From the sequence record NC_014260.1: a DNA stretch of 64,000 nt. The stretch is one strand, 5' to 3'. Below are positions 4,216 to 32,003 of this stretch, in pieces. This DNA comes from Escherichia phage IME08. The notes beneath the pieces were generated by a model that saw only the letters and a list, made by a program, of their open reading frames with translations, was not told the origin of the DNA and did no database searches. The number at the start of each line of letters is the position of its first letter. The stretch's first letter is position 1. A program made the translations under genes and the position numbers.

Positions 4216-5234
4216 CGTGTAACCTCATTATAAAGTTGTGCAGCCATAGTCTTAAGGGCTTTAACATCGTCTTCAGTGTGGCCATCAGGAAGGGCGTCGA
4301 TATAATCATACATCATATCCAAGAGGGACTTAACTTCATCTTCCTCTTCAGAATCATCGATATCAACACTGTTATCTACCTTAGACACGATACGTAAAGA
4401 ATGGACGACCTTTTCAAGCTCTGATTCGAACTTAGTAAGGCCATCATCGATTTTATCGACTATAACACGAACTGCAATATTTGTAAAATCTTTGTAATCG
4501 ATAGTCGCGTTAGGATAATGAATCTTACGGTGCCAACAGGTTTCATTGATGACGAAATCCATTGTATGGGTTTCTGTATCGAAAATCCAGAAGCCGCGAG
4601 GGTCGTTTTCATCACCTGCAGTCAGGGTCCATGGCGTACCAATATACTTAACGTTTGCTGCATCAGAAATAGTGTGGAAGTGGCCTGACCAAACTTGCTT
4701 ATACCTCTTAAGGAAATCAGGTTCTAAACCATGAGATTTCATTCCTTTATAGAAATAGAAACCATTTAATTCCCAGTGACCTATACAGAAATCTGCTGTA
4801 GTATTTTTGATATGGTCCATGATATCAGTAGTGTTTTCTTCACACATCCATGGAATCAAATCAATTTCGGTACCATCAAAGTTAACCGTAGTAGGTTTCT
4901 CAATAACCTTGATATGGTCGTATTTACCCAGAACTTCAGAAGCAGCGTTCGGAGTCAAGGTATTTTTGTAGTGTGCATCATGGTTGCCGACGACAGTATA
5001 CATGGTAATGCCGTTGGTTTTAAGCAAATCTGAAATATGTCTAGCAAATTCCATACACTTATGAGTAATTGCTTTACGAACATCAAAAATATCACCATAC
5101 TGAATCCAGACAGTGATACCATTTGCTTTAGAATAATTGATGGCATCTTTGATGCCTGCCAATTGGATGTTTTGCACCCAAGGGTCGTCGTTCTTCACTC
5201 CAAGGTGCCAGTCACCCGTATTAAGAATTTTCAT
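4212..5234 (-). CDS. 47: Recombination endonuclease subunit gp47 (Mre11/SbcD-like phosphoesterase)
   Basis: Start at MKILNTGDWHLG (metallophosphatase motif I), about 340 aa as T4 gp47 (339); GNHD motif present; synteny with 46. Confidence 0.88.
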   Translation of the reverse strand: MKILNTGDWHLGVKNDDPWVQNIQLAGIKDAINYSKANGITVWIQYGDIFDVRKAITHKCMEFARHISDLLKTNGITMYTVVGNHDAHYKNTLTPNAASEVLGKYDHIKVIEKPTTVNFDGTEIDLIPWMCEENTTDIMDHIKNTTADFCIGHWELNGFYFYKGMKSHGLEPDFLKRYKQVWSGHFHTISDAANVKYIGTPWTLTAGDENDPRGFWIFDTETHTMDFVINETCWHRKIHYPNATIDYKDFTNIAVRVIVDKIDDGLTKFESELEKVVHSLRIVSKVDNSVDIDDSEEEDEVKSLLDMMYDYIDALPDGHTEDDVKALKTMAAQLYNEVTR

Positions 5235-5838
5235 TACGTATTCGTTCCCACATTTTGGAGGCTGCTTTAGAAGCAGAGCCAGGAAGTTTACCTTTGACCC
5301 ACCCATCAGGAATATTAGATGGGTTAATCAGTTTATGTTCTATTCCGTTATTATACCACTTCCTGCCCTTATTATGACTAGATGCTTTATAATTAGGTGA
5401 ACGACCTTCTACATATCCTTCGGGGACTGTAGGTGCAAAGGTTTGTTCTAATGTAACAGGATTATAGGAATGAATATACCCTTTAGCATTATGAGAGCCG
5501 TAAAGAGGGTGTTGCTCTTTAGGTAGCGAAAGCCCAAAGAATCCTTTAGGAGCTGCGACAGCCCTATTAAAGAATAGAGGATTTTGGGCTGCATCGGTTC
5601 TTAACTGGTACATTCTTTCAGCTTCTAAAGCCTCTTCTCTTGTAGGGTGTTCACTTACAATACATGAGTCAAATAATTCTGGATGCTCTAAAAGCTCATT
5701 TTTATAGATTTCTTTATATGCTTTAGAAAGGACACTCCCGTGATATCCTTTTAAATGCTTCTCTAAAGTGGTAGACCCTATATAAAACGGTGGAAGCTTA
5801 GTCCCGGAATATATTGTCAGGTATGTGATGTATTTCAT
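5221..5838 (-). CDS. Putative homing endonuclease (GIY-YIG-like N-terminus, WYNNG-type C-terminal motif)
   Basis: 205 aa; N-terminal LTIYSG...FYIGST...KHLKG resembles GIY-(8-10 aa)-YIG; C-terminal GRKWYNNGIEHK...IPDGWVKG resembles DNA-binding modules of phage homing endonucleases; occupies the locus where T4 carries alpha-gt. Confidence 0.45.
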   Translation of the reverse strand: MKYITYLTIYSGTKLPPFYIGSTTLEKHLKGYHGSVLSKAYKEIYKNELLEHPELFDSCIVSEHPTREEALEAERMYQLRTDAAQNPLFFNRAVAAPKGFFGLSLPKEQHPLYGSHNAKGYIHSYNPVTLEQTFAPTVPEGYVEGRSPNYKASSHNKGRKWYNNGIEHKLINPSNIPDGWVKGKLPGSASKAASKMWERIRNENS

Positions 5839-6838: not shown

Positions 6839-7379
6839 ATAAAAAATCCAGTTCACCGACTTTAGGTTCGGCACTCTTATCAGACCCTGGTGCTTTAGTT
6901 AAAGAGGTTTCATACTGAGTCATTTTGTCGTAGATATCTTGGATAAAGGTTTCATCTGCGATACCTACCATGTCGTCATCATTACTGTCATAGACGTTAT
7001 GGACGAAGTAGCTATATTTCTTTGCCATTTCTTTACGTTCTTTTTTGATACGCTGAACGAAGGCATTAAAACAAGCCATAGTGATATATGCATGTGGGTT
7101 GTCGTATTTTGTTTCGTCGAAGTTGTGAAGACCTTTAATCGAAGCTTCGATTCCATCAGCAATCATTTCTTGCTTCCAAGATTGGGTATATCCTGAGAAG
7201 TTGAAACGTTTACTTAGTCCTTCAGCAATGAGCATAATAGCCAAGCCAATAACGTCGTTCTGGCGAACTATTTTATTAGGATCAGTATTTTCTCTGAGCT
7301 CTGTTTTCCATTGGGTAATAGCTTTCAGAAGCTCCTTATTATTTACATAGTTATTTTTAGTCAGTTTAATTTCGGTCAT
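6822..7379 (-). CDS. 55: Late-transcription sigma factor gp55
   Basis: 185 aa, same length as T4 gp55; near-identical core [13 protein letters not shown]...[57 protein letters not shown]. Confidence 0.92.
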
Positions 7380-7404
7380 TGTTACCTCAGATAACTCAAA
7401 TCAT

Positions 7405-7445
7405 AGGTCTATTATATCATGGTATTTGAAGACCCTTTTAAAGCA
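7405..7445 (-). promoter_or_regulatory. Promoter-like element upstream of gene 55
   Basis: Minus-strand TATAAT followed by AGACCTATGA, resembling the downstream half of the repeated early promoter cassette; no canonical GTTTAC -35. Confidence 0.3.
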
Positions 7446-7709
7446 TCAACGGAGTAAGCAATAAGCCTGAAATACTGTTTCAAGGATTTTTTTGAACTCT
7501 TCAAAGGAAGGAGCTCCTTCAAACCCTTGGCTTTGAATGTAAAGACAGAATTGTTGGTAAAGGACCAAATATTCTGATTGGTTATATTTGGAAATATGGG
7601 ACTTCCATACTTCAGAAGTCTCTCCACAAATAAACTCAACATTCATATAACTATCTATTAAGAAAATCCCTAGTCCTTCGTAGGCGAGGGTAGTGGATAC
7701 AGGGGTCAT
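7446..7709 (-). CDS. Hypothetical protein
   Basis: 87-aa ORF; overlapping 76-aa ORF 7412-7642 is in another frame and judged less likely. Confidence 0.4.
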   Translation of the reverse strand: MTPVSTTLAYEGLGIFLIDSYMNVEFICGETSEVWKSHISKYNQSEYLVLYQQFCLYIQSQGFEGAPSFEEFKKILETVFQAYCLLR

Positions 7710-7972
7710 TGTAGGAATCGAGCTCCTTCCAGTGCGTCATCAAGATTATCAAACTCATCGACGTAATCAACACCGCCAACTTCATCCTTCGCATAAAGCC
7801 AGTACTGTTTAAATTCGTATTCGATGATAAAGTGGTCACCCTCAATCTGGAGAGTCCCATCACCATTAAATTGAACTGCATAACCTGTAAAGCGGACATC
7901 ATTCAAGAGTTCTTCTTTCATAGCAATCATTTCCAAGTTTTTATCGTAATTAGAGAGTTTTATTTTAATCAT
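7706..7972 (-). CDS. Hypothetical protein
   Basis: 88-aa ORF, ATGA overlap with downstream gene. Confidence 0.45.
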   Translation of the reverse strand: MIKIKLSNYDKNLEMIAMKEELLNDVRFTGYAVQFNGDGTLQIEGDHFIIEYEFKQYWLYAKDEVGGVDYVDEFDNLDDALEGARFLQ

Positions 7973-8213
7973 TCAAATAATCCTCAAATTCATTTAATGT
8001 CATGCCTTCATCCCAAGCTATTTTTGGGTCAGGCATTTTCATATAAGTGGTTTTAGAGCTTATAGGAAATATCCTGAAATCACGATGACTTCCACTTAGC
8101 ATCTTAGCCGCTTTTATAATAGTTTCAATATTATTCATCATGGGTGTACGTTGGAACCCGGCTAAAGCTTTAAGGACTATTATAACCGATACACCCTCAG
8201 GCAAATTATTCAT
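7965..8213 (-). CDS. Hypothetical protein
   Basis: 82-aa ORF, same strand, overlapping neighbours by a few nt. Confidence 0.45.
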   Translation of the reverse strand: MNNLPEGVSVIIVLKALAGFQRTPMMNNIETIIKAAKMLSGSHRDFRIFPISSKTTYMKMPDPKIAWDEGMTLNEFEDYLND

Positions 8214-8539
8214 TTAGCTGCCTTAACAATTTTCAGGTCGACGAATTTTTTCTTACGTTGGTTTTTCATACGACGGATAGTTTTATCCGTGATTTCACCA
8301 GGGCACCAAGCTTTGGATTCAACACCAAAGGCAGCGACATCGAATTCATCAAGGATATATTGGACCAGGATTTCACGAATACCATTCTTACCAATTTTCT
8401 GGTCTTTGGAGTGCATGATTGGTAACAGTTCGGCAACCCATTGGTCAAGAACCTGAGGAGTTACAAAACCTGTTTTCATCAGTTCGTTTACTTTATCGAA
8501 AGCGAAAGAGTTCAGTACGTTTTTAATTGCTTGTGACAT
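8210..8539 (-). CDS. Hypothetical protein (N-terminus MSQAIKNV, shares its initiation region with the gene at 15319-16161)
   Basis: Start moved to the ATG preceded by SD GAGGAAATT, because an early promoter lies inside the longer track ORF. Confidence 0.5.
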   Translation of the reverse strand: MSQAIKNVLNSFAFDKVNELMKTGFVTPQVLDQWVAELLPIMHSKDQKIGKNGIREILVQYILDEFDVAAFGVESKAWCPGEITDKTIRRMKNQRKKKFVDLKIVKAAK

Positions 8540-8578
8540 AATAATTTCCTCAGTTTTAAAGTTATAATCCGTAGGACC

Positions 8579-8608
8579 ATTATACTCTGGTCCCAAGAGT
8601 TTGTAAAC
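8579..8608 (-). promoter_or_regulatory. T4-type early promoter (PeSL-like cassette)
   Basis: Minus strand: GTTTAC (-35), 18-nt spacer, TATAAT (-10); inverted repeat GGGACCA/TGGTCC flanks the -10. Confidence 0.55.
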
Positions 8609-8808
8609 TATTTTTGTGCTTTAGCGCCTTTCCAACCTTCGAACATCATTGCTGCGGAAATTAACAAAGCGCCTGAACAAGCTGAATATTTGTGGTTCCA
8701 AAACCAGTTCAGAAAAACTTCGTCATCAATACCTTGGGCTATCATATTTTCAAAGAACTGACGACGGGCTTCAGAAATTTGCTGTGATAATTTAGATTCA
8801 GGATTCAT
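8608..8808 (-). CDS. Hypothetical protein
   Basis: 66-aa ORF. Confidence 0.4.
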   Translation of the reverse strand: MNPESKLSQQISEARRQFFENMIAQGIDDEVFLNWFWNHKYSACSGALLISAAMMFEGWKGAKAQK

Positions 8809-8940
8809 TTAAATTTTCCAATTGCCATTTTCATCAATGAATTTAACCCAGTCATTTACTGACCACTTGGTTGTATCGCCTTTTGGAGCAACATTTAAAG
8901 TATACAACCCTTGCTTAAAAAGCATTCGTTTGATATTCAT
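8809..8940 (-). CDS. Hypothetical small protein (43 aa)
   Basis: Internal ATG of track ORF 8809-9033 with strong SD GAGGAAACT, 8 nt after the upstream stop. Confidence 0.35.
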   Translation of the reverse strand: MNIKRMLFKQGLYTLNVAPKGDTTKWSVNDWVKFIDENGNWKI

Positions 8941-8947
8941 AGTTTCC

Positions 8948-9241
8948 TCAGCTGTAACGATAACATTCGTTTGATTTACGTTTTGCAACTTGATGAGAAG
9001 TATTGTAATCAGGTTCATCATCGTTGTAAACATCTTTTTTCAGCTTTCTCACTTCTTTACGAAGTTGGCGGTTCATTTCATTCTTAACTTCTGAGTCAAC
9101 GCCTCTCATACGTTTCCACTTGTCGGAACGGAAGATATTTTCTTCAACCAAATCCTGACTTACGCCGACCGGTGCTTTACGACGCCCGGAATAATAAAAA
9201 TCTTTTACAGACAATTCTTTACGACGGATAGTTTTACCCAT
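8948..9241 (-). CDS. Hypothetical basic protein
   Basis: 97-aa ORF, Lys/Arg-rich. Confidence 0.45.
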   Translation of the reverse strand: MGKTIRRKELSVKDFYYSGRRKAPVGVSQDLVEENIFRSDKWKRMRGVDSEVKNEMNRQLRKEVRKLKKDVYNDDEPDYNTSHQVAKRKSNECYRYS

Positions 9242-9243
9242 AG

Positions 9244-9498
9244 TTACCTCAGCAGTTTGTATCCAATAAGATTTTTAATGTATTGGACATCTTTGACATC
9301 CAAATCTAACTTAATATCTTTCAGGCGTTCAGCCAGAGTAAGAAATGTTACACGTTTCCAATTCTTAACAGGACAGCAATAAGTTTTAGGGCCGTTGGCG
9401 ATTTCAATATTCTTATCAGTGACGGTGAGAAAAATCAGGCGCTCATCATCCAGATTAAGGGTAATGATATTTTTCATTGAATGTAATTTCAGGCTCAT
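9244..9498 (-). CDS. Hypothetical protein
   Basis: 84-aa ORF. Confidence 0.45.
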   Translation of the reverse strand: MSLKLHSMKNIITLNLDDERLIFLTVTDKNIEIANGPKTYCCPVKNWKRVTFLTLAERLKDIKLDLDVKDVQYIKNLIGYKLLR

Positions 9499-9677
9499 AA
9501 TTTAATTTCCTTAGCTATCGAACAAAACAAACTACGGTCACATACCATCAATGGAATATTTCTATGGTCTAGTACACGATACCATACGTCTGAATCGCTA
9601 GCAGCAATTACACGAACCGCACGCCCATTTACCAAATAATACTGGTCGGCTTTAATTTCTTTATCTTGGATAGTCAT
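9495..9677 (-). CDS. Hypothetical protein
   Basis: 60-aa ORF, SD GAGGAG upstream, immediately downstream of an early promoter. Confidence 0.45.
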   Translation of the reverse strand: MTIQDKEIKADQYYLVNGRAVRVIAASDSDVWYRVLDHRNIPLMVCDRSLFCSIAKEIKL

Positions 9678-9706
9678 AATGTTCTCCTCATGTGTTGATA
9701 GGATAG

Positions 9707-9735
9707 ACTATAACATGTGAGGAGAGGAAGTAAAC
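9707..9735 (-). promoter_or_regulatory. T4-type early promoter
   Basis: Minus strand GTTTAC, 17-nt spacer, TATAGT, then CTATCCTATCAAC. Confidence 0.5.
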
Positions 9736-9736
9736 A

Positions 9737-10054
9737 CTAATCTTCAATTAAATCTCGGTCATAACCAAGTTCAATCAAAAGTGACTTAAAGGCAGGAATA
9801 TTTTCTATTTTCTTATTATCGACAAATATGACAGGATAGCGTATCGCTAAGCTCTTGAAGCCTGCACGTTTGGCCAATGATACTATAAGAGGCTTGTCAT
9901 ATACTGCGCCTGACGGCGTCTGATTAATCACAGGATAGAAAGTATGTGGGATAGAAAGGGAATTTAGGAGCGATAGAACAGCAATGCACCCTGGACAGCG
10001 CATGACTGTCTCAGGGATACCATAAATCTCAATTTTAGTTAACTTTTGGTCCAC
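9737..10054 (-). CDS. Glutaredoxin/NrdH-like thioredoxin-fold protein
   Basis: 105 aa with CPGC active-site-like motif after a beta strand (IEIYG) and a P-VIFVD element; occupies the T4 nrdH position between 55 and 49. Confidence 0.5.
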   Translation of the reverse strand: MDQKLTKIEIYGIPETVMRCPGCIAVLSLLNSLSIPHTFYPVINQTPSGAVYDKPLIVSLAKRAGFKSLAIRYPVIFVDNKKIENIPAFKSLLIELGYDRDLIED

Positions 10055-10331
10055 AGGAAATAACTCCTTGGTAGTCCCAGGTTTTTAGAACTTCGTCTTC
10101 ATTAGTTCCGTATGGAACGTAAACCTGTACAAGGAACCCGGTATCATCAAAAGAGAAGTAGACAGTAGGTTTAATACCATGAATCTCTGACAGAGCATAG
10201 ATGTCCTTGAGGTCGTCTTCCTTACCTTTAAAGAATTCCGGGTTCAGGTCACAGTCATGGAAGTACCAATCATCACCGAATTTGTCCCAGGCGGTCCAAT
10301 TGGTAGCTACATACTCTTCAAAACGTTTCAT
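10035..10331 (-). CDS. Hypothetical acidic protein
   Basis: 98-aa ORF. Confidence 0.45.
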   Translation of the reverse strand: MKRFEEYVATNWTAWDKFGDDWYFHDCDLNPEFFKGKEDDLKDIYALSEIHGIKPTVYFSFDDTGFLVQVYVPYGTNEDEVLKTWDYQGVISCGPKVN

Positions 10332-10555
10332 TCTTTCACCTTCATCATTTTAGAAATAACACCGTGAACAGCCTGGATTCGTTTTTCGAACTCAGACCCT
10401 TCAAGACCTTTTTCAGTACTCAGGGCACCGATAATAACAAACAGTAATCCAAACGGGATGACCAGGATTAAAAGGCATACGATAAACAGGGCAAATGTAA
10501 TATTGGCCAGGATATCGGAAACAGCATTACGAAATTTGTTCATTAAAGAACCCAC
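10328..10555 (-). CDS. Small membrane protein (two predicted TM helices)
   Basis: 75-aa ORF, hydrophobic core LANITFALFIVCLLILVIPFGLLFVIIGAL. Confidence 0.45.
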   Translation of the reverse strand: MGSLMNKFRNAVSDILANITFALFIVCLLILVIPFGLLFVIIGALSTEKGLEGSEFEKRIQAVHGVISKMMKVKE

Positions 10556-10664
10556 ATGTTAGTTACAACAAATAACCATTGAGCAGGATACTCAACACCC
10601 ATAATACGCACCGCATCGTTCAGAGATTCGGTTAAAGCATAAAATGTGTAGCCATAAAAATTAA

Positions 10665-11138
10665 TCATTTAAGCGATTTCCTCAGTTGTTTTTTAAACGA
10701 ATCGACCATTTGTTTCTTAGTAGCAGATTCATTATAAGTCATTCCATGTGAAAGCATTTCAGCAATCATTTCTTCCTTACCCAACCTGCTGAACTCTTTG
10801 GTTTTATCGGGAACGAAATTAGGATGAATATTGTTTTCAGTATAATCAGCTTTCAGATAGACCAGCAAATTCTCTAACCATTCGAGGTAGTCAACGTTTT
10901 GACCTTTAAGACCAGAACGGTTGAACTTATGCTTCATTTGTCCTTCTGCAGCATTGCACAGGTTACATAGTAAACCACGAACCTTACCGGCTTTTGGCCC
11001 GTTTAACTCGTGGTCGTGGTCAAGGTGGTTACTTTGAACATCAGGGTTTAATTCACGTTTACAAATCAAACACTTACCACATTGTGCATCATAAAGTTTT
11101 TGTTTTTCTTCTTTGTATAATTTGCCGGTCAACAACAT
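10665..11138 (-). CDS. 49: Endonuclease VII (Holliday-junction resolvase) gp49
   Basis: 157 aa, identical length to T4 gp49 and near-identical sequence MLLTGKLYKEEKQK.YDAQ.GKCLIC.RELNPDVQ.NHLDHDHELNGPKAGKVRGLLCNLCNAAEGQMKHKF. Confidence 0.93.
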   Translation of the reverse strand: MLLTGKLYKEEKQKLYDAQCGKCLICKRELNPDVQSNHLDHDHELNGPKAGKVRGLLCNLCNAAEGQMKHKFNRSGLKGQNVDYLEWLENLLVYLKADYTENNIHPNFVPDKTKEFSRLGKEEMIAEMLSHGMTYNESATKKQMVDSFKKQLRKSLK

Positions 11139-11270
11139 AATAAACCCTTACCATTATTAGATAAGGGTATTTATTAATATCCTAATAGTTTAGCAGTGCA
11201 ACTTAGCACTAACAACAATCCGAATAAAACAACTCCTACCCAAAATACCGTAATAAGAGCATCCATATCA

Positions 11271-11444
11271 GACCCCATAGAACGAACGATGCAAACGTTT
11301 GAATTGACGAATCATCTTTTTAGTAGGACGGGTGTATAATCCTACACAGGTGGCCATAAACTGGTCGGTAGGACTTCCTTTGATAAGAAGTTTCCAGACC
11401 TTACCACCATTCAACTTTTCGGTATAGACTAATTTAGTTTTCAT
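11271..11444 (-). CDS. Hypothetical small protein (57 aa, below the ORF-track cutoff)
   Basis: ATG overlapping the upstream stop (TGATG coupling); translation MKTKLVYTEKLNGGKVWKLLIKG...; coordinates approximate. Confidence 0.3.
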
Positions 11445-11659
11445 CAGAACGCCTCGTCGGAAAAGCGAAGTTGAGCTTCAAGCCAATGAATATAATCGGC
11501 TGCAGCTTTAATCAAATCGGATTCTAAGTCAGGTAAAGAACCCGAATCCGACAATTCGTAAAGCGAATGTTCAATCAGACGGCCTTTATGACGGCCAACT
11601 TCAATTTTGGTACCCATATCCAAACTCCATATCGATGAAATCATTGTTTGAAGGTTCAT
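11444..11659 (-). CDS. Hypothetical protein
   Basis: 71-aa track ORF; the true start is probably an internal Met because the -10 of the upstream promoter overlaps the first ATG. Confidence 0.4.
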   Translation of the reverse strand: MNLQTMISSIWSLDMGTKIEVGRHKGRLIEHSLYELSDSGSLPDLESDLIKAAADYIHWLEAQLRFSDEAF

Positions 11660-11686
11660 TATACTCTATTTCGGAATCGTTGTAAA
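11657..11686 (-). promoter_or_regulatory. T4-type early promoter
   Basis: Minus strand GTTTAC, 18-nt spacer, TATAAT. Confidence 0.45.
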
Positions 11687-11733
11687 CCGGTTCCTCTGGC
11701 TCGGTAGTTTTCCACCGAGCGACATACCATGGC

Positions 11734-12042
11734 TTAACGGTCACACCACCAACTACTTACTTCAAAATCAGGTTCACCGTGTTCCCAGTACCAAGGGCCG
11801 ACTGGATGCCAATCGCCATGTTCATCTTCTTCAAATTCTTCAGATTCAAGCCCAACATATTGCCATTGGACTTCATAAGCGGTGCCACCTATTACAACGG
11901 TGTTCTCGCCATATGGGTGAGCTACAGCAAAGTCTATACCTTCTGCTTTAGCCAACCAAACCATATATTCGTATAGTTTATATTCCAGGTCATCTTCGGT
12001 GCCATCACCTAGAAAAATGGTTTGTTCGTTTAATTCAATCAT
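11734..12042 (-). CDS. Hypothetical acidic Trp-rich protein
   Basis: 102-aa ORF. Confidence 0.45.
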   Translation of the reverse strand: MIELNEQTIFLGDGTEDDLEYKLYEYMVWLAKAEGIDFAVAHPYGENTVVIGGTAYEVQWQYVGLESEEFEEDEHGDWHPVGPWYWEHGEPDFEVSSWWCDR

Positions 12043-12215
12043 AATTCCACCATAAATTCAAATAGCTGGTCACGTACACAAGTATCAGTCCAGCCCCATT
12101 CGTTGGCTTCTTCTTTTAACCAATCCGGGAGATTTGCCAATACGGTTTCTTTACTAGGCGCAGGAGTATCAAACTCACTTGCGCAGGTTCCATAAGCTAT
12201 ATCAAATTCAGTCAT
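12039..12215 (-). CDS. Hypothetical protein
   Basis: Track ORF 12039-12284; likely start at MTEFDIAYG, with ATGA overlap onto the upstream small ORF. Confidence 0.4.
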   Translation of the reverse strand: MTEFDIAYGTCASEFDTPAPSKETVLANLPDWLKEEANEWGWTDTCVRDQLFEFMVEL

Positions 12216-12379
12216 TTGAAGTTCCAGAATGAAGCACCAACCAGAAATAAAGGCCAACAAATCATAGACGTCAGCCACCAACAAAAGTCACCTGCACCGA
12301 AATCATCTAATTTAGCTAGGGTCTTAGCATAACCAATACCGATGATAAGATACAAAATACCCAACAATAATTCAATCAT
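12212..12379 (-). CDS. Small hydrophobic protein (55 aa, below the ORF-track cutoff)
   Basis: ATG overlaps the nrdC stop (ATGA); translation MIELLLGILYLIIGIGYAKTLAKLDDFGAGDFCWWLTSMICWPLFLVGASFWNFK; coordinates approximate. Confidence 0.35.
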   Translation of the reverse strand: MIELLLGILYLIIGIGYAKTLAKLDDFGAGDFCWWLTSMICWPLFLVGASFWNFK

Positions 12380-12639
12380 TTGAAATACGCTCGCAGTTGG
12401 TCAAAGCCGCCAATAGAAGTTCCGTCTGGAGCAAATACCTGAGGCATAGTCAAACCTACCTGAGATTCACGTCCAAGAGCAGCCAGGAGTTCAGCAATCT
12501 TCTCATCATCAAATACGCCTTTTTCCGGCATCACGTTAATGAATTCGTAAGGTTGTTTCTTAACATCAAGCAGACGTTTGGCGTTATCACAGAAAACACA
12601 ACGGTGGATATTTGAATCGTAACCATAAACTTTAAACAT
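12376..12639 (-). CDS. nrdC: Thioredoxin/glutaredoxin NrdC
   Basis: 87 aa; MFKVYGYDSNIHRCVFCDNAKRLL...GGFDQLRAYFK closely matches T4 NrdC (CVYC active site). Confidence 0.88.
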   Translation of the reverse strand: MFKVYGYDSNIHRCVFCDNAKRLLDVKKQPYEFINVMPEKGVFDDEKIAELLAALGRESQVGLTMPQVFAPDGTSIGGFDQLRAYFK

Positions 12640-12640
12640 T

Positions 12641-12877
12641 TTAAATTCCTAATATTTGTTTGAATGCTTCAGAACGGTCAAGTTCTGTTCCATATTTTTC
12701 CATGTGCTCATATTTTAAATCATACACATCAGATAGTACATTATTATATGAGCGAGTTAAAGCAGATTTCAATACTGAATAACTGTCCGGGAATTTACCA
12801 TGCTCTTTATAATAAGCTACGGTGAGTTCGCGGACTGCCTTATCGGCAGCCTCTACATATTCTTTACGCTTTGCCAT
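12641..12877 (-). CDS. Hypothetical protein
   Basis: Internal Met ([10 protein letters not shown]) of track ORF 12641-12991; the N-terminal part overlaps the better-supported ORF 12864-13175. Confidence 0.35.
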
Positions 12878-13175
12878 TTTCGTCTCGCTCAAATTTGTGT
12901 TTACAATGGCGGCATTTGTAACGAAGATTACTAGTCTGCCAATGGACCAATTGGACCTGTTCTGTACCACACTCAGGACAGTTAGGAACATCCTTAGAAG
13001 CTTGTTCTCGTCGTGCGACCATAGCCATTACAGCATCCCAATTAACGGCATCACCATAATCATCACAACCATGAATTTTACCAACCAATTCAACTTCAAC
13101 ATCCGCGGCTTTAATAAATTTCAATAAACCGGTATTAGATGCTGAAGCAATATCTTCAGCTAAACGTTGTTTCAT
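12864..13175 (-). CDS. Hypothetical zinc-ribbon protein
   Basis: 103 aa with CPECGTEQ...CRHCKHKF (C-x2-C...C-x2-C). Confidence 0.45.
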
Positions 13176-14182
13176 TTCAGCAGCTCCAGAGCTTGTTCAA
13201 GACGGTCTAAACGATTGGTAGACTCTTCCCAAAGTTTCTTGGCGGCGGTATATTGGCCGGTCAGTTTTTTGTTAATAGCAAGGGCATCTTTATACGCTTT
13301 TTCTAAGGCCACGATTTCCGGTAACTTGGATTTAGTAATTGGTGTAGGGGCCATGATAGGGCTGTTCAAGTCGTTAATCAAATCTTCTAATGTAGCAGGC
13401 TCTTTATCAGTATTCACAATTTCCTCACATTTTTCTTGGTAAATTTCAGCGTCAGTTTTTGGAACGGTACATTTGATTTCACGGACTGTTACTAAAACTT
13501 CATATCCTTTCCAGCCTAAGTGATGTTTAACTTCTTGGGTCTCATATTTCTCTACGGTATCCATCAGAGCTAAAGCTTGTTCGATAGTATTCAAGGTATC
13601 GTAAGCAATATCTTGATACTTTACAACTTCCGCATCATCTTTAGGTTTCCTATTAGGTGACCAAATAACAGAAATAATAGCTTTTCCTTTATAACTATTT
13701 GTTTTAATCATGCAATTGGCCATCGGGTGAATAGTACGACAATCACCGGAAACTATAGTTTTAGAGGCCGCTTTGAGAATTAATGCAGAGTTAGCTTTGA
13801 ATTCGGTAACCCAACGTTGTGGAAATAAACTACTAGGGTCCATACCTTTAATTTTGATATAACTTTTTATGGTATCACCAAACCATTTGTAGCTAACAGC
13901 ATGGCTAGAACCCGGATGTTTCTCTTTGCCAAACTCTGAAAGGATGTCCTTATTGACCAGTCGCGAAAGCAGTCGAGAACCTTTAAATGTTTTAATGATA
14001 TCATGAATGCACAAACGGCCTGCAATCTTTTCGATTTCAGCTTTGAAACAGCGCGATAATGCATCATCAATTTGGTCGACCCATTTATTGATATTAGAAA
14101 CTATTACCACATATGGGGTTAATGGAGGGGTGTTGGCAGTGATATACGTAGTAAAGGCATTGATGTATTCAGTACGAGTCAT
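13172..14182 (-). CDS. Hypothetical protein (336 aa)
   Basis: Long ORF, SD GAGGAG, immediately downstream of an early promoter. Confidence 0.55.
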   Translation of the reverse strand: MTRTEYINAFTTYITANTPPLTPYVVIVSNINKWVDQIDDALSRCFKAEIEKIAGRLCIHDIIKTFKGSRLLSRLVNKDILSEFGKEKHPGSSHAVSYKWFGDTIKSYIKIKGMDPSSLFPQRWVTEFKANSALILKAASKTIVSGDCRTIHPMANCMIKTNSYKGKAIISVIWSPNRKPKDDAEVVKYQDIAYDTLNTIEQALALMDTVEKYETQEVKHHLGWKGYEVLVTVREIKCTVPKTDAEIYQEKCEEIVNTDKEPATLEDLINDLNSPIMAPTPITKSKLPEIVALEKAYKDALAINKKLTGQYTAAKKLWEESTNRLDRLEQALELLK

Positions 14183-14208
14183 GATATTCTCCTCAAGTTG
14201 ATAGAAAG

Positions 14209-14238
14209 ATTATACTCCATCCATCCTTGGATGTAAAC
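14209..14238 (-). promoter_or_regulatory. T4-type early promoter
   Basis: Minus strand GTTTAC, 18 nt, TATAAT, then CTTTCTATCAAC. Confidence 0.55.
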
Positions 14239-14239
14239 A

Positions 14240-15133
14240 TTATTTTAGAGCTAATACTGCGGCGCGGAGCTTGTCACGCTGGAGTTCCATGTTCTTGATG
14301 CGAATCAATACGTCTTGAATACTCTTTTTCTCATCTTCGATCTGACCATTTAAACGGTGGATTGATTCCTGGAGGTGGTCCTCATGATACTTCTCGATAG
14401 GTTTCATCGTAGGGTTAGTAACCACCATAGAATTCTCAGGCTTGATTTTCCACTGATACTGTTTGGAATTGAATGGACTAGGCACAGCCGTGGTTTTGAA
14501 TTTGTCATAGGCTGCATACTGGCCTACGCTGTCACATGATACTGCAGAGATACGTCGTTCCATTTGTGGGTCCTTTTGTTGGGATTGATAAGGGGCATAA
14601 GACAAAAGATATTCACGAGTTAGTTTAATATTAAAATAAACTGCATCAGCCCGACCAGAACAATCAGCGTATTCATCGGTTGTAACCTTATATGATTCTA
14701 CTGCCTTAATACGAGTCATTGCTTCTCTGAATAAGGTTTCAAATGCTCCACGAAGGGCCTTATTACCTTTTGAGGTAGGACGGAAACGAACTTGAATACC
14801 GTCAGCCAAAATATTAATGACTAGGTTACGAGCCGTAAAATTAATATTCTTGATATTGATATGAACCGTAGAAATACGTCCTGCGGTAGCCAAGAGGTCT
14901 TTGATATTAGCTCGTAATGTTGCACCGAACAGGTGGGCTGGGCAAAGGCAATAATCGTTCAAAGAACTAATATAAGTCCCTTTACGGCCTACGCCGTAAG
15001 TATAATTACCATTACAAATATGGCCAAAGTCGGCCAGACGGTCAATAGCGATACGACGTGTGGTATCAAAATCATATCGGGAATATTCTTTACGTGTTTT
15101 AATGTTCATATTAAAGTCCAAATAATTTTTCAT
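14240..15133 (-). CDS. Hypothetical protein (297 aa)
   Basis: Long ORF, same strand, tight packing. Confidence 0.5.
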   Translation of the reverse strand: MKNYLDFNMNIKTRKEYSRYDFDTTRRIAIDRLADFGHICNGNYTYGVGRKGTYISSLNDYCLCPAHLFGATLRANIKDLLATAGRISTVHINIKNINFTARNLVINILADGIQVRFRPTSKGNKALRGAFETLFREAMTRIKAVESYKVTTDEYADCSGRADAVYFNIKLTREYLLSYAPYQSQQKDPQMERRISAVSCDSVGQYAAYDKFKTTAVPSPFNSKQYQWKIKPENSMVVTNPTMKPIEKYHEDHLQESIHRLNGQIEDEKKSIQDVLIRIKNMELQRDKLRAAVLALK

Positions 15134-15317
15134 AGAGTTTAGCGATAGGCCAGGTTATAATAAAAACTATCCCAAACATAGCAAGAACTGGCCAGATAAA
15201 GGTGGCAAACACTGCTTCACCACCCGAGTTAATTTCCATATGATTGCGGCCAATAAGGACGGTAATGAATCCTATCACAAGGTATCCAAAAATAAAACTG
15301 ATAATTAAAGTAGCCAT
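15111..15317 (-). CDS. Small membrane protein (two TM helices)
   Basis: 68-aa hydrophobic ORF. Confidence 0.4.
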   Translation of the reverse strand: MATLIISFIFGYLVIGFITVLIGRNHMEINSGGEAVFATFIWPVLAMFGIVFIITWPIAKLYEKLFGL

Positions 15318-15318
15318 A

Positions 15319-16161
15319 TTAATCCTTAAGAAGATTTAGGATATCGATATATTTTTGACGTTCAGCCTTAGCTTTAGCGTTCAGACCGGAGAGTCGGAAA
15401 ATCTCATCATCTTGTTGTTGAATTGTAACATTCAAGCAAGTAAGCAAATTACTAAAATACTCAATCTGGGCTTGATGCTTCTCATTGCTGCGCACCGGCA
15501 CAGGTTCCGGTTTAGGAGCTTCTGAATGACTCTTAACTTCATTACCTGGCTTAACAAGTTTAATACGCCAGCCTGTACTGGTATTAACATTATCAAAGGT
15601 AAGAATACCGCTACGTTCGAGTTCGGACAAAGCCAGTCGAAGATGGAATTTCCAATTGTCATATTGACAACCACTAAAAGTTGAAGTAAGATACTCGTTT
15701 TCGTTACCTGGTTGGTTGACAATATTAAAGATAATCCAATCGCCTGAACCATTAGTCTTAAATGGCATTTGCTTATCTTTACCTAAAGCCAGACGAGCAC
15801 CCAGTGCTAGTAAACGACGTTGGTTAGTACGAAGGTCTTTAACAACTTCATCAAATGACATCGCCGGGATTAAACGACCATAGAGGTCATAGCCTTTGTT
15901 ATAATTTCTAAGAATAATTCTGGCGTTAGCACGAGTCAACATACCGGCCCTGTGAAGAGATTTCATGACTCGGTCTTCTAACGTAAACAAACCTTTAGTC
16001 TTGTCAAAGATTTTAGTGAATTCATCTACAGAAATACAAACTTCAAACTTTTCCCACATCATGGCCAAAACCTTTTCAACCACTTCTTTATTCAGTGGAA
16101 TACGACCAAATTTAATAACCTTTTTAACTTCAGAACGAATTTGATTAATTGCCTGTGACAT
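15319..16161 (-). CDS. Hypothetical protein (280 aa; N-terminus MSQAINQI)
   Basis: Long ORF; its leader, SD and first codons are nearly identical to those of the gene at 8210-8539. Confidence 0.5.
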   Translation of the reverse strand: MSQAINQIRSEVKKVIKFGRIPLNKEVVEKVLAMMWEKFEVCISVDEFTKIFDKTKGLFTLEDRVMKSLHRAGMLTRANARIILRNYNKGYDLYGRLIPAMSFDEVVKDLRTNQRRLLALGARLALGKDKQMPFKTNGSGDWIIFNIVNQPGNENEYLTSTFSGCQYDNWKFHLRLALSELERSGILTFDNVNTSTGWRIKLVKPGNEVKSHSEAPKPEPVPVRSNEKHQAQIEYFSNLLTCLNVTIQQQDDEIFRLSGLNAKAKAERQKYIDILNLLKD

Positions 16162-16224
16162 AATAATTTCCTCAGTAAGTAATTAAGAACCTAGAACCAT
16201 TATACCATCCTTGGTATAAAGCGT

Positions 16225-16749
16225 TTATGCGAGAACCGTCTTTAAACGCTCTTCAAATTTCTGAAGCAGAGCTTGGCGTTCAGCTCGTTGTGATTTGTAC
16301 TGCTCGATACGACCTGAAGTGAGGGCGTACTGTTCGTTTACTGATTCCCGCATGAATTCAGGAATCTCTTTACAAGCTTTTATTTCGTCAAACTTATCAA
16401 TAACCGCTTGTTCCTCGGCAATCAGATTATCGAAATAAGCGATATCAGATTTAACGTTTGCCAGGTCAGATTCAGTAGGCATTAAACGTTTGTTACGTTC
16501 AGCTTGATAAGCTTGATTGGTTTCACGACTCCAGTGAAGAGTACGTTTTTTGTTAGTGTTTTTATAGAGCTCTACAATACCAACTGAATCGATGACTGCA
16601 ATCCAGTTCCAACGGCTTTTGTAAATCTCTCCTCCAGATACGGTAATCTCATTACCACAAGCAACGTCGTTAAAGAACTTGCTTTGTTTTTCAGATTTGA
16701 AATTACCGTTGTTGAAATTAATCAGTGAAAAAATATCTTTAGCGTTCAT
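16225..16749 (-). CDS. Hypothetical protein (174 aa)
   Basis: ORF with SD GGAGG, directly downstream of an early promoter. Confidence 0.5.
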   Translation of the reverse strand: MNAKDIFSLINFNNGNFKSEKQSKFFNDVACGNEITVSGGEIYKSRWNWIAVIDSVGIVELYKNTNKKRTLHWSRETNQAYQAERNKRLMPTESDLANVKSDIAYFDNLIAEEQAVIDKFDEIKACKEIPEFMRESVNEQYALTSGRIEQYKSQRAERQALLQKFEERLKTVLA

Positions 16750-16775
16750 GATAACCTCCAGTAGTTGATAGGTCT

Positions 16776-16804
16776 ATAGTATCATTTCTACCGGAGATGT
16801 AAAC
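16776..16804 (-). promoter_or_regulatory. T4-type early promoter (PeSL-like cassette)
   Basis: Minus strand GTTTAC, 17 nt, TACTAT, then AGACCTATCAAC. Confidence 0.6.
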
Positions 16805-16806
16805 AA

Positions 16807-17148
16807 CTAATAGAAACTTTTTTCACCTGCTTGTCCACTAAACCACGCTGATTGGGTGTTCTCTTTCCGTTGATGTTCAATACGAATGCGATATTCATTC
16901 CTGATGGCGCAGAGTTCACCTCGGAAGTCGCCTGTCAACTTTACCTGCTTGTGGTCTAGATTTATTAAGGCCTGGGTCTTCGCGGCCAGGAGCAGTCTCT
17001 TGTAGTCTCCTTCTTCACAATCAGTTTTATAAACTCTATTAGTATATCCATCGATAAGTTCTTTATCATAGTCCTCGACAGACTGTTTCATGGCTTTGGA
17101 AAAAGTCTGACCTGCGTTATAAAGATTGTAACTAAATTGTTCGAACAT
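16807..17148 (-). CDS. Hypothetical protein (113 aa)
   Basis: ORF with SD AAGGTGA. Confidence 0.45.
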   Translation of the reverse strand: MFEQFSYNLYNAGQTFSKAMKQSVEDYDKELIDGYTNRVYKTDCEEGDYKRLLLAAKTQALINLDHKQVKLTGDFRGELCAIRNEYRIRIEHQRKENTQSAWFSGQAGEKSFY

Positions 17149-17158
17149 AATTTCACCT

Positions 17159-18139
17159 TTATTTCAGAAGTGTAACTTCAGCGATTTCGTTCCAGTCATT
17201 TTTATCGGTGGCAATGAAGTCCGCCAGATAAAGAGCTGTACGTAATGATACGTTACGAAGACGAGATACATTAGCCTTCATCCATGCTAAAGCTTGATAA
17301 GTCTCAGCATCAGTCAGACCTCGATTTTGCATCATATCAGTAGACAGGATAACGTCTTCAACACGAACCATAATCTCTTCGTTCGAGTGAACTCCGAGGT
17401 CTAAGTAAACTGAACGAGATACTAAAGCCTGGAGGTGCGGAGCAAGTTTAGTTCCACGCTCTAATTCACGGTCAATATCTACGTTGGTGATGAACACGAT
17501 GGTGCCTTCGTATTCGAATTCTTTATCGATGTTTTTATCATCGAGGTAAGAACTTGAAGTGCTCCAGCACACCTTACGTTTTTCACCAGTATCCAATGCT
17601 GCTTTTAACAGGTTCAGGATATCCATATCAGAGAATACATCAACATCATCGATAAGAAGAACACTATTAGGGCCGCGGTTATTCCAAAGCTGCTCGTAAA
17701 GACCGATTCCACTAATCTTTCCGTTGATTGATTTATATTCGATAGTTTCATTTTCGTGGGCATTTTGTAATGCTTTATCCAAAGAATACGTTTTACCAAT
17801 ACCTGCGGCACCAGAGATGATAAGGGAACGAATTTTACCATCGATGATTCCGTTGGTCATCATGTTCATTACTTTAAAACGTTTGTTGATGCGATGTTTC
17901 ATTTCTTCGGCGGATTCAGTAACCATTGCAGGAGCTTCAGCACCTTCCATTTCAACGTCACATTTGAACACCCATACACCACGTTCAACACCATCAATCT
18001 GTACGAATACCTTACCATCACCGAGATGAGCTTCGGATTCATGAATTTTATTAGGGAACCAGGTTTTACCTGAACTCATGAACGTACCAGAGATTTCATT
18101 ACCGCGATAGATACCTTTGTTGATTTTGATAGTTAACAT
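17159..18139 (-). CDS. P-loop ATPase (Walker A GAAGIGKT, Walker B LLIDDVD)
   Basis: Start placed at MLTIKINKG with SD GGAG, because an early promoter lies within the longer track ORF 17159-18226. Confidence 0.55.
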   Translation of the reverse strand: MLTIKINKGIYRGNEISGTFMSSGKTWFPNKIHESEAHLGDGKVFVQIDGVERGVWVFKCDVEMEGAEAPAMVTESAEEMKHRINKRFKVMNMMTNGIIDGKIRSLIISGAAGIGKTYSLDKALQNAHENETIEYKSINGKISGIGLYEQLWNNRGPNSVLLIDDVDVFSDMDILNLLKAALDTGEKRKVCWSTSSSYLDDKNIDKEFEYEGTIVFITNVDIDRELERGTKLAPHLQALVSRSVYLDLGVHSNEEIMVRVEDVILSTDMMQNRGLTDAETYQALAWMKANVSRLRNVSLRTALYLADFIATDKNDWNEIAEVTLLK

Positions 18140-21215: not shown

Positions 21216-21228
21216 ACTGTTTTCCTCA

Positions 21229-21459
21229 TTAAATTTTTTCGAATAATGCTAAAGCTTTTTCGATAGCTACAGATTTGGTACCAATAACCATTTTAGGCTG
21301 AGATTGGAACTTAGTAGCTTCGTAAACTTCTAAACCGGTTACTTTACCATTTTGTTCGATAATAGCAAAGGTGGCGTTTTCAAAATCTTCAGCTTTAACT
21401 TTAAGTGCTTTAGAAGCTTTAGCGATATCGATAACTTTCAGGTTGGTGATGGTTTTCAT
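21229..21459 (-). CDS. Hypothetical protein
   Basis: 76-aa ORF with SD GAGGAG, first gene after an early promoter. Confidence 0.45.
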   Translation of the reverse strand: MKTITNLKVIDIAKASKALKVKAEDFENATFAIIEQNGKVTGLEVYEATKFQSQPKMVIGTKSVAIEKALALFEKI

Positions 21460-21487
21460 TTTGTTCTCCTCATTAGTTGATAGGTCT

Positions 21488-21516
21488 ATAGTATCATGTT
21501 CCTAGAGGATGTAAAC
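21488..21516 (-). promoter_or_regulatory. T4-type early promoter (PeSL-like cassette)
   Basis: Minus strand GTTTAC, 17 nt, TACTAT, then AGACCTATCAAC. Confidence 0.6.
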
Positions 21517-21524
21517 ACCTAAAC

Positions 21525-25378: not shown

Positions 25379-25406
25379 TTTGTAATCTCCTGTAGTTGAT
25401 AGGTTT

Positions 25407-25435
25407 ATAGTATCATGTCTACAGGAGATGTAAAC
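25407..25435 (-). promoter_or_regulatory. T4-type early promoter upstream of regB
   Basis: Minus strand GTTTAC, 17 nt, TACTAT, then AAACCTATCAAC; inverted repeat CCTGTAG/CTACAGG spans the -10. Confidence 0.6.
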
Positions 25436-25439
25436 AGCT

Positions 25440-27137: not shown

Positions 27138-27437
27138 TTAGAAAGAACCAGAACCTTTAATTGTGTTCTGGCGACCTTTATTTTCTAATTCAGAGTGGTC
27201 GATTTCATATGCTTGTGCTACGCCAAAGGCCTTTTTAACTTTAGCTAAAGAACCTTTAGATGTAACAATATTAAAGGTATTGCCTTTGGTAAAATCAACC
27301 AAATCGACTTGTACACCCTGTTTACCGAGGCTTGCTACAATAGCATCAACATATTCTTGGTCTAAATTGCCTTGAACTCCAATTTGAAATGCTTTAGGAG
27401 CTTTGGCTTCTGTAATAAATTCTTGATAAGTTTTCAT
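27138..27437 (-). CDS. ipII: Internal head protein (IPII-like) with capsid targeting sequence
   Basis: 99 aa; N-terminal MKTYQEFITEA capsid targeting sequence; position next to denV and e. Confidence 0.7.
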   Translation of the reverse strand: MKTYQEFITEAKAPKAFQIGVQGNLDQEYVDAIVASLGKQGVQVDLVDFTKGNTFNIVTSKGSLAKVKKAFGVAQAYEIDHSELENKGRQNTIKGSGSF

Positions 27438-27461
27438 ATTATTCCTTAAGTTGATAGAAGT

Positions 27462-27956: not shown

Positions 27957-28259
27957 TTATTTACCTTTAATTGCTTTAGCTGCTTCGGTAGCCGCTTGCT
28001 GAAGGTCATCCATAGACATACCAAACTTAGAAGCAAAGTTATCAATTTTCTTTTCGACAGAATTCAAAGGCTTGGCCTGTTTACCTTCATTAGCGCCCGG
28101 GAGAGCGAGAATACGCTCTTTGTCAATATAAAGGCTTACAAGTTTCTTACGGTCTTTATCTGGCAAATCATGAAATGAATGGGCCTTTTTATTTACAGCG
28201 GCTTCTAATTTACCTGCGGTTACGCGGGCTTCAGTGATAAATTCATTATAAGTTTTCAT
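27957..28259 (-). CDS. Internal head protein with capsid targeting sequence
   Basis: 100 aa, N-terminal [11 protein letters not shown]; lies between denV and e where T4 carries ipIII. Confidence 0.65.
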
Positions 28260-28740
28260 ATGCTTTCCAAGTACCTGTTTTAAATGTTGAAATCACGCGC
28301 TTAGCACGATTAGGAGTTTGTTTATACCAACGGGATTGAGCCAGGTTAACTGCCGCATCGTCCCAACGTTTCTGTTGGAGCATACGTAAAGAGTTAGTGA
28401 ACCCAGCTACACCTGCTTCACCCATCTGGAAGACCATGTTAATTAAAGCACAACGACGAACTTCGTCCAGTACATCATAAACAGGTTTCAATTTAGGATT
28501 ACGCAGAATAGCTCTACGAGCATTTTCAACCGATCGGTTAAAGAGTTGTTCAGCTTCAGCCATAGTAATACGACCGTTGCAAACCCGGCCCATAAGCTTA
28601 TCAAGTTCGGCACGAGCAACATCTTTTGAAGGGTTTTTGGTAATCAACTGGCCAATCCCAATAGTCCAATAACCTTCGGTGTCTTTATAAAGATTTAAAT
28701 CAAGACCTTCGTCTTGACGTAACATATCAAAAATATCCAT
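28246..28740 (-). CDS. e: Lysozyme (endolysin) e, glycoside hydrolase family 24
   Basis: 164 aa, same length as T4 lysozyme; [35 protein letters not shown]...[32 protein letters not shown]. Confidence 0.93.
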
Positions 28741-30719: not shown

Positions 30720-30733
30720 AATATTTTCCTCAC

Positions 30734-30946: not shown

Positions 30947-30983
30947 TTTATTCTCCATTTCACTCTGTTGTTTTGATAGGTCT

Positions 30984-31012
30984 ATAGTATCATGCCTATA
31001 GACCTTGTAAAC
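30984..31012 (-). promoter_or_regulatory. T4-type early promoter (PeSL-like; identical 46-bp copy at 39181-39226)
   Basis: Minus strand GTTTAC, 17 nt, TACTAT; perfect 10-bp inverted repeat AGGTCTATAG/CTATAGACCT spans the -10. Confidence 0.6.
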
Positions 31013-31024
31013 AATTTTATGCAA

Positions 31025-31984: not shown

Positions 31985-32003
31985 AATATTTTCCTCAGTA
32001 AAC

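Follow-up and report, generated by a model that had tools for sequence, protein, structure and literature searches.

The stretch of Escherichia phage IME08 analysed here (sequence record NC_014260.1; 64,000 nucleotides (nt), hereafter the window) carries two genes with unrelated products and almost identical translation start regions. These are gene A, the orthologue of T4 55.2, and gene B, the orthologue of T4 nrdC.6, which share a block of 32 nt with 31 identities that runs from the Shine-Dalgarno sequence (SD) into the first codons (coordinates in Table 1). Comparison across phages indicates that the likeness brings together two starts that were each inherited vertically over a long time and were similar already, and that it owes nothing to recent transfer. 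As to how the two came to be similar, we hold it about evenly balanced whether the ancestral starts were already near-identical through old copying and were vertically inherited from then on, which would make the finding real but fairly ordinary.

The shared start block and its rarity

The block reads ACTGAGGAAATTATT ATG TCA CA(A/G) GCA ATT AA, with a single mismatch in its 32 nt. An earlier reading of the window, made from the letters without database searches (the sequence-only reading), had reported an upstream block of 29 nt with 28 identities; this is confirmed, and the match extends to 32 nt with 31 identities. The common MSQAI start described there is also real, gene A beginning MSQAIKNV and gene B MSQAINQI. 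A 30-nt pattern with up to 3 mismatches allowed finds these two sites only in the window, and none in 100 dinucleotide shuffles. As background for start regions, positions -15 to +17 were compared among the 155 starts that have an SD, an ATG and an open reading frame (ORF) of at least 40 codons (11,935 pairs). The A/B pair is the top outlier at 31/32, followed by a runner-up at 27/32, with the remainder at 23/32 or below. In the untranslated region (UTR) alone (-15 to -1), A and B are the sole pair alike at all 15 positions among 5,460 pairs of 105 genes.

Taken singly, the two halves of this match are less striking. Identical first five residues are expected for 0.25 pairs among the 105 window genes and so are not rare, while the start class nnTGAGGAAA (TGAGGAAA core) comprises five window genes with UTRs 12-15/15 alike (10 of the 5,460 gene pairs). 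It is because the identical UTR combines with the shared five residues that chance is improbable: by a rough estimate, five residues, start class and identical UTR together have a probability of about 1e-4 per window, and a chance origin is unlikely.

The other genes of the same UTR type encode DUF7275/DUF7277 proteins or proteins of no family, and no known RegA target is among them. The UTR ACTGAGGAAAATATT (31985-31999, minus strand), belonging to a 319-aa DUF7277/DUF7275 protein, is 14/15 identical to that of the block, and AGTGAGGAAAATATT (30720-30734, minus), which precedes the gene of a 228-aa protein, is 13/15 identical. The UTR of the gene of a 78-aa protein, AATGAGGAAAACAGT (21216-21230, minus), has only the TGAGGAAA core in common with it.

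The window has a second pair of similar starts, at 9637-9690 and 36065-36118 (both minus). The genes (9495-9677 and 35707-36105, both minus) encode proteins of 60 aa (at the 55.6 position) and 132 aa that start M(T/N)I(Q/E)DKE and align by BLASTP in residues 1-9 only, and both are preceded by GTTTAC-type early promoters. Their start, TGAGGAGAACATwATGAmTATCsAAGATAAAGAAAT (repeat family D18), is identical at 27/32 in the -15 to +17 frame and at about 36/41 overall. Given this pair, a common start region with common first codons may recur in the genome. Small genes starting MKTY(Q/N)EF(I/L) are found at 27381-27440, 28203-28269, 37137-37176, 38876-38935, 39103-39169 and 39418-39457; their 5' ends make up repeat families D5 and D6, and they are probably a paralogous early-gene family.

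History of the two starts across phages

To judge from the region 7000-17200, which shares 96% identity with Enterobacteria phage vB_EcoM_IME341 and 90-95% with many further Dhakavirus genomes, the window is that of a Dhakavirus, a T4-type phage (Straboviridae, Tevenvirinae). Both families of genes can be followed well beyond this genus. The gene A start MSQAIKNVLNSF, with the UTR A(C/A)TGAGGAAAtt..t, occurs in many genera, including phages of Klebsiella, Serratia, Citrobacter and Yersinia. In gene A orthologues the pattern ATG TCN CAR GCN ATY AAA AAC encodes MSQAIKNV, and its synonymous sites are free to vary (TCA/TCT/TCC/TCG, CAA/CAG, GCT/GCA, ATC/ATT); it is hence the protein that is constrained, and MSQAIKNV is ancestral. 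Diverged starts are carried by T4 (MTIQIKN), Gaprivervirus (MTASITN), the lineage labelled L076 (MSTEIKN) and Mosigvirus-like phages (MSTKIKN).

Throughout the nrdC.6 family M1, S2, I5 and N6 are invariant. In Dhakavirus, Gaprivervirus, L070 and L076, gene B starts MSQAIN(Q/E)I behind the UTR (A/T)(C/T/A)TGAGGAAA(T/A)TA(T/A/C)T; elsewhere it starts MSQVINEI (P0097 lineage) or MSVVINNV (T4-type phages). MSQAIN(Q/E)I is taken to be ancestral to nrdC.6 in at least four lineages. Gaprivervirus-like phages keep ATTGAGGAAATTATT-ATGTCACAAGCAATTAAT at B while their A is quite different; the B start is therefore independent of A in the same genome.

The identity of A to B within one genome (-15 to +17) is 31/32 in Dhakavirus, 29/32 in L070, 23/32 in L076, 20/32 in Gaprivervirus and 16/32 in T4, i.e. 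it is high exactly where A retains the ancestral start. The window shows 31/32 because the Dhakavirus lineage retains the ancestral start of both families. Among deeper forms, P0097-type B and L028-type A are identical at 27/32 by hand count. These comparisons show that each gene carried essentially its own 5' end through long vertical descent.

The one lineage in which the tract clusters by genome is L070 (a 173-kb ENA contig), with B 60% and A 74% identical to the genes of the window; such clustering is not seen in Dhakavirus, Gaprivervirus, L076 or T4. The A-B identity of L070 reaches upstream to -21, both copies being TCATTCAATGAGGAAATTA, and its UTRs match the partner in the same genome at 20/21 positions, against 13-16/21 for any orthologue. 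The upstream motif common to the two L070 copies is of the A type and is present also in A of L075. In a quartet of the Dhakavirus and L070 copies (-21 to +17), grouping by genome leaves a mismatch sum of 8, against 16 for either alternative grouping, with 2-3 informative sites in A/T-rich sequence. Together these features are no more than suggestive of A-to-B short-tract conversion in the L070 lineage.

Two further signals were set aside. Three derived, A-ward changes in the Dhakavirus B UTR were considered and dropped, as B of the Gaprivervirus-like phages L072-L074 and of L071 carries ATTGAGGAAATTATT while A there is MTASITN; the Dhakavirus and L071-L074 (ATTGAGGAAATTATT) B UTRs differ at position -14 alone. 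The leaders between the -10 box and the SD are alike in A and B with P 0.016 against shuffles (alignment score) and are bridged by megablast. As a sign of exchange this is weak, each leader being clearly orthologous to its own family.

Gene A and gene B encode unrelated proteins

Gene A belongs to PF24454/DUF7570 (E 6e-38) and phrog_1475, shares about 66% identity with T4-type 55.2, and has a conserved position between 55.3 and 55.1, as in T4. By these comparisons it is the orthologue of T4 55.2, the topoisomerase I inhibitor. T4 gp55.2 is an early, non-essential protein that raises phage fitness, inhibits E. coli topoisomerase I and is toxic if overexpressed (PMC4396842). The predicted structure of the gene A product (AlphaFold, pLDDT 90) is that of a small helical protein with helix 1 starting at residue 3.

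Gene B matches phrog_2257 (E 3e-123), and its homologues carry PF26899 (Phage_T4_Y05B). Over residues 23-279 it has 47% identity with T4/T2 nrdC.6, and it lies downstream of nrdC.8; family and position mark it as the orthologue of T4 nrdC.6. In the AlphaFold model (pLDDT 78) the N-terminal domain is helical, a second, small domain is of alpha/beta type and the C-terminus forms a coiled-coil hairpin; a Foldseek search found no significant PDB match to this model.

The sequence-only reading had found the remainder of the two proteins not obviously similar, and full-length homology, which would have made this ordinary paralogy, was looked for by sequence, profile and fold and was not found. BLASTP of A against B gives no similarity (best E 8.7), and hhalign aligns columns 1-8 only, with a probability of 4-5%, whether the alignment for A has 16 or 44 sequences. 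The Pfam and PHROG families differ. In a Foldseek search of viral structures with the A model, confident matches are only to 82-112-aa 55.2-like proteins, and none is of about 280-300 aa. The residues common to A and B make up the cap and the first turn of helix 1 in both models. By BLASTP, profile-profile comparison and predicted fold, A and B are not paralogues.

A more distant relationship, with gp55.2 and the N-terminal domain of NrdC.6 derived from one protein of which helix 1 alone is still recognisable, is very improbable. The two models do have an alpha-helix from residue 3 and all-helical N-terminal regions, and N7-V8 is common to T4 NrdC.6 (MSVVINNV) and 55.2 (MSQAIKNV). Against this, hhalign reaches no further than those eight columns at either alignment depth, the models differ in the length and order of their helices, and the confident viral Foldseek matches of A include no protein of NrdC.6 size.

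Two observations were made on nrdC.6 and its neighbours. The T4 reference nrdC.6 (L051 14067-14894, NC_000866) ends ...QIEELIFLFNNMMMKFSDYLD, where all other Tequatrovirus homologues continue ...QIEELNISIQQYDDEIFRLSGLSSKAKSEREKLIKIVDLLKS; a frameshift or sequencing error there removes the conserved C-terminal coiled coil. In the window, the nrdC.4-, nrdC.5-, nrdC.6- and nrdC.8-type proteins (13172-14182, 14240-15133, 15319-16161 and 16225-16749, minus) have a similar heptad-like C-terminal helix, with endings that include ...KLRAAVLALK, ...YIDILNLLKD and ...FEERLKTVLA. Two of these proteins weakly match phrog_26858, and they may have a common C-terminal oligomerisation module.

Upstream units of the two genes

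Both start blocks stand at the 3' end of a compact unit, with the same order at both sites: the stop codon of the upstream gene (TAG for A, TAA for B), a promoter, the SD and the ATG, the units ending in GAGG-8 nt-ATG (Table 1). The promoters are of different classes. That of A is of the sigma70 (T4 early) type, and the stem over its -10 box has an equivalent (GAGGAC...GTCCTC) in other genera. Before gene B no sigma70 -35 hexamer was found; its candidate promoter resembles a middle promoter with a MotA box, and sites of the form GCTTTA-N11-13-TATAAT number three in the window (that of B, 1854-1876 and 34170-34193, the latter two on the minus strand), against 0.09 expected. The arrangement is conserved in Gaprivervirus and the L070 lineage.

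Table 1. Coordinates of the two genes, of the copies of the shared block and of the elements upstream of them in the window.
Feature	Positions	Strand	Description
Gene A (T4 55.2 orthologue)	8210-8539	minus	109 aa, starts MSQAIKNV; ATG matches annotated coding sequence in IME341
Block, copy A (initiation region of 55.2 orthologue)	8523-8554	minus	31/32 identical to copy B
Parts of copy A	8548-8551 (SD); 8537-8539 (ATG)	minus	SD GAGG, 8-nt A/U spacer, ATG, codons 2-5 plus 2 nt
Stem-loop A	8574-8593	minus	GGACCA(N8)TGGTCC, 6-bp stem over -10 box; -5.9 kcal/mol, z -1.8 (DNA fold)
Promoter A, sigma70-type (T4 early-type)	8579-8607	minus	TTTACA-17-TATAAT, 11/12 match, right after stop of upstream gene
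Gene B (T4 nrdC.6 orthologue)	15319-16161	minus	280 aa, starts MSQAINQI; ATG matches annotated coding sequence in IME341
Block, copy B (initiation region of nrdC.6 orthologue)	16145-16176	minus	31/32 identical to copy A
Parts of copy B	16170-16173 (SD); 16159-16161 (ATG)	minus	SD GAGG, spacer, ATG, codons 2-5 plus 2 nt
Promoter B, MotA-box-like, middle-type (candidate)	16199-16222	minus	GCTTTA-12-TATAAT (sequence match)
Stem-loop B	16200-16219	minus	TTATACCA(AGGA)TGGTATAA, 8-bp, 3' arm over -10 box; -6.3 kcal/mol, z -2.9

Units built in this way recall the promoter-early stem-loops (PeSLs), mobile regulatory cassettes of T4-type phages (Arbiol, Comeau and Krisch 2010, PMC2839356; Comeau et al. 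2014, PMC4122927). PeSLs end in an SD and start codon, and their crossovers map between the -10 box and the ATG (PMC2839356). Several similar copies exist per genome and recombine, giving indels, replacements and mini-circles (PMC2839356; PMC4122927).

Classic PeSL-like cassettes are abundant in other parts of the window. Direct repeats of 57-91 nt (D2-D4) lie at 16752-16808, 21464-21520, 25383-25439, 30960-31016, 36438-36494 and 39173-39229; their minus-strand sequence is that of GTTTAC early-promoter units in which an inverted repeat GGTCTATAG...CTATAGACC surrounds the -10 region. One of them is directly upstream of the nrdC.8 orthologue, adjoining gene B.

Mobility of the block

The sequence-only reading had proposed a portable 5' module spread by cassette shuffling. 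What remains of this is the position of the block at the 3' end of PeSL-type units; recent portability does not agree with the vertical descent of both starts, nor with the lack of a third gene and of chimeras. The 19-mer AGGAAATTATTATGTCACA is found in IMG/VR only before Dhakavirus A and B and before one unrelated 135-aa gene, and a 28-nt pattern has one A context and one B context in the JGI metagenomes. Scanning some 200 kb of related loci for the N-terminal motif revealed no third gene family that carries it. Synthetic chimeras (B flank with A body, A flank with B body), counted as matched when covered over at least 80% of their length, match none of 50,697 phage records, and A/B recombinants were likewise not found in IMG/VR or the JGI metagenomes.

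A recently shuffled 5' cassette carried by two genes is therefore scarcely credible, and is already largely refuted. It would account for the sharp boundaries of identity, for the block standing at the 3' end of PeSL-like units, and for the second gene pair of the window with the same pattern (9637-9690 and 36065-36118). It is contradicted by the age of both 5' ends, each vertical in its own family; by Gaprivervirus and L076, which retain the B version while the A version differs; by the scans with the 19-mer and 28-mer, which in T4-type phages give A and B contexts only; and by the lack of a third family and of chimeras already described.

The unrelated 135-aa gene is carried by two IMG/VR contigs of 17 and 14 kb (L052 and L062), in a context that is not T4-like, and its product begins MSQ(T/A)TITINGNQYDLK.... 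Its match to the block is apparently an independent occurrence, and a block-like start can apparently arise independently.

Old copying or convergence

The reading that we prefer is that of old copying followed by vertical inheritance. Long ago, one ancestral start would have been copied onto the other, probably through recombination between the 3' ends (the SD-ATG region) of units made of promoter, stem-loop, SD and ATG, of the PeSL type. Since then purifying selection would have kept the likeness, acting on the ribosome-binding site and the N-terminal helix of each protein, and occasional short-tract ectopic conversion may have added to it. The two mRNAs, made from different promoter classes, would then offer the same strong, unstructured ribosome-binding site and respond alike to any factor that reads it, with the RegA repressor as the obvious candidate.

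Several points weigh against this. The copying event was reconstructed and not observed, with no outgroup to polarise the nrdC.6 N-terminus, and a path from MSVVIN through MSQVIN to MSQAIN is possible by a few point mutations. The start type is common, at least two other unrelated window genes having UTRs 13-14/15 identical to the block. The gene of L052 and L062 carries AGGAAATTATTATGTCACAAGCAA, with 23-24 nt identical to the block, and has an MSQ(A/T)TITING start. Most Dhakavirus genomes keep fixed synonymous differences (CAA-GCT in A against CAG-GCA in B), which makes conversion a rare event at best. The by-genome signal of L070 consists of the 2-3 informative sites and a 7-nt A/T-rich extension (rough P 0.01-0.1). 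The chimera queries without a match also count on this side.

The rival to be taken most seriously, though we consider it clearly less probable, is convergence or coincidence: a preferred strong start type, nnTGAGGAAAwTAwT-ATG, would have met with a chance MSQAI in two genes whose DNA was never exchanged. In its favour, sharing of five residues is expected for 0.25 window gene pairs and sharing of four is at chance level; synonymous sites match at 2/4 in most Dhakavirus genomes, by eye no more than A/T-rich codon usage gives; the TGAGGAAA start class holds five genes whose UTRs agree at 12-15/15 positions; 23-24 nt of the block recur, with an MSQA/MSQT start, in an unrelated contig; and among nrdC.6 starts the residue pairs VV, QV and QA can be ordered as successive mutations. 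What tells against it is the joint probability of about 1e-4 per window (five residues, both genes in a class of 5/105 starts, identical UTR), the 27/32 identity already present between the deeper forms, P0097-type B and L028-type A, and the extension of identity upstream in L070.

If old copying is the true account, cassette recombination in T4-type phages can have its junction within the first codons, and unrelated proteins would inherit a common N-terminus together with an identical ribosome-binding site, a small extension of the PeSL shuffling model. For annotation and repeat scans there is a caution: very similar short start regions of T4-type phages need a phylogenetic check before being called mobile.

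Possible translational control by RegA

The sequence-only reading had also suggested that the block could co-regulate the two genes. As their promoter types differ, any shared control would have to act on translation. A structured RNA element was considered and rejected: the A and B leaders are less structured than shuffled controls, folding worse than these, and no Rfam family matches in 7000-18000. Another candidate is RegA. The SELEX consensus of T4 RegA is AAAAUUGUUAUGUAA, and its operators, among them those of gene 44, rIIB and dexA, are A/U-rich and unstructured, with a 5' A-tract, and overlap the AUG or lie just 5' of it (PMC3014915). The block, with the candidate RNA site GAGGAAAUUAUUAUGUCACAAGCAAUU, matches this T4-derived consensus at 12/15, the highest score of the window (top 2 among 155 starts, top 3 among 2,327 ATGs). 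Both the closest genome and L076 have a regA homologue beside genes 44/62. The gene 44 start of the window (about 621, minus) is CCTGAGGAAATTAAT-ATG and is grouped with the block by the repeat finder (family D7). We found no paper linking RegA to 55.2 or nrdC.6.

A shared operator, at which RegA binding would keep the two starts alike and coordinate their shut-off across promoter classes, is on balance unlikely. In its favour are the consensus match, the A/U-rich and unstructured character of the block with its 5' A-tract and overlap with the AUG, the regA homologue in the phage group, the grouping with the start of gene 44, a classic RegA target, and the toxicity of overexpressed gp55.2 (PMC4396842). 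On the other side, in T4, the source of the consensus, the orthologous starts of 55.2 and nrdC.6 match at 5/15 and 7/15, which weakens RegA as a conserved regulator of both genes; the start of the window's own gene 44 matches at 9/15 only; RegA sites are degenerate, and matches are hence weak evidence; and 55.2 codons vary synonymously across genera, so that the constraint there is on protein and not on RNA. If the operator did exist, the two genes, including that of the toxic topoisomerase I inhibitor gp55.2, would join a RegA-type translational regulon in Dhakaviruses.

A broader version, in which the two starts, with at least two more genes at the level of the UTR, belong to a recombining family of translational operators kept alike by short-tract ectopic conversion, is more doubtful still. 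In such a family one trans-factor, RegA or another start-site binder, would read a cis-element in unrelated genes, and an element reaching into the coding region would force a shared N-terminal pentapeptide on unrelated proteins.

Genomic setting

All genes of the region 7000-17200 are on the minus strand, in the order known from T4 (nrdC.11 ... nrdC.8, nrdC.6, ... nrdC, pin, 49, nrdH, 55.x, 55). The genes between the two block copies include those of endonuclease VII and nrdC, and are not ORFans. At 5221-5838 (minus), a 205-aa ORF beginning MKYITYLTIYSGTKLPPFYIGST resembles a GIY-YIG (Seg-type) homing endonuclease and is inserted beside the gene 47 orthologue, whose annotated start region it overlaps. 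In the related contig L073 a SegE-like gene lies elsewhere. In the 3' part of the window, a tandem array of 6 copies with a 93-nt period (61-77% alike) and a family of 51-nt repeats (D1 and D8; 58809-59430 and 55695-56255) both lie within plus-strand ORFs.

Comparison with known systems

With PeSLs the two sites share an intergenic unit that starts at the upstream stop, contains a promoter and a stem-loop (between the -35 and -10 boxes or over the -10 box) and closes with an SD and a start codon. They differ in that near-identity is found in the SD, spacer, ATG and five codons, running into the coding sequence, and not in promoter and stem-loop; in the unlike promoters, of sigma70 early type for A and MotA-box-like for B; in that public genomes hold no indel, replacement or mini-circle product of both copies; and in the segment between the copies, whose genes (endonuclease VII and nrdC among them) are not ORFans. 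With RegA operators the block shares its A/U-rich, unstructured sequence and a 5' A-tract overlapping the AUG, along with the 12/15 consensus match and a regA gene in the phage group. A candidate operator, it differs in the poor match of the orthologous T4 starts, and the class itself has no sharp definition.

Ectopic gene conversion between short dispersed repeats is a known route of concerted evolution, to which L070 may be comparable: its tract groups by genome, with a boundary different from that of Dhakavirus. Unlike in that process, the tract is of about 30-40 nt, the flanking genes are non-homologous, and in Dhakavirus the differences between the copies are fixed. Mosaic lambdoid phages have short conserved boundary (linker) sequences at gene junctions. 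Such linkers resemble the block as short conserved sequences at gene borders, able to serve as points of recombination between unrelated modules; they belong to another group of phages, and the block differs in containing a ribosome-binding site and N-terminal codons and in having no documented module exchange. Set beside these systems, the A/B start adds one more case to a type of feature already known from T4-type phages, and is of modest interest.

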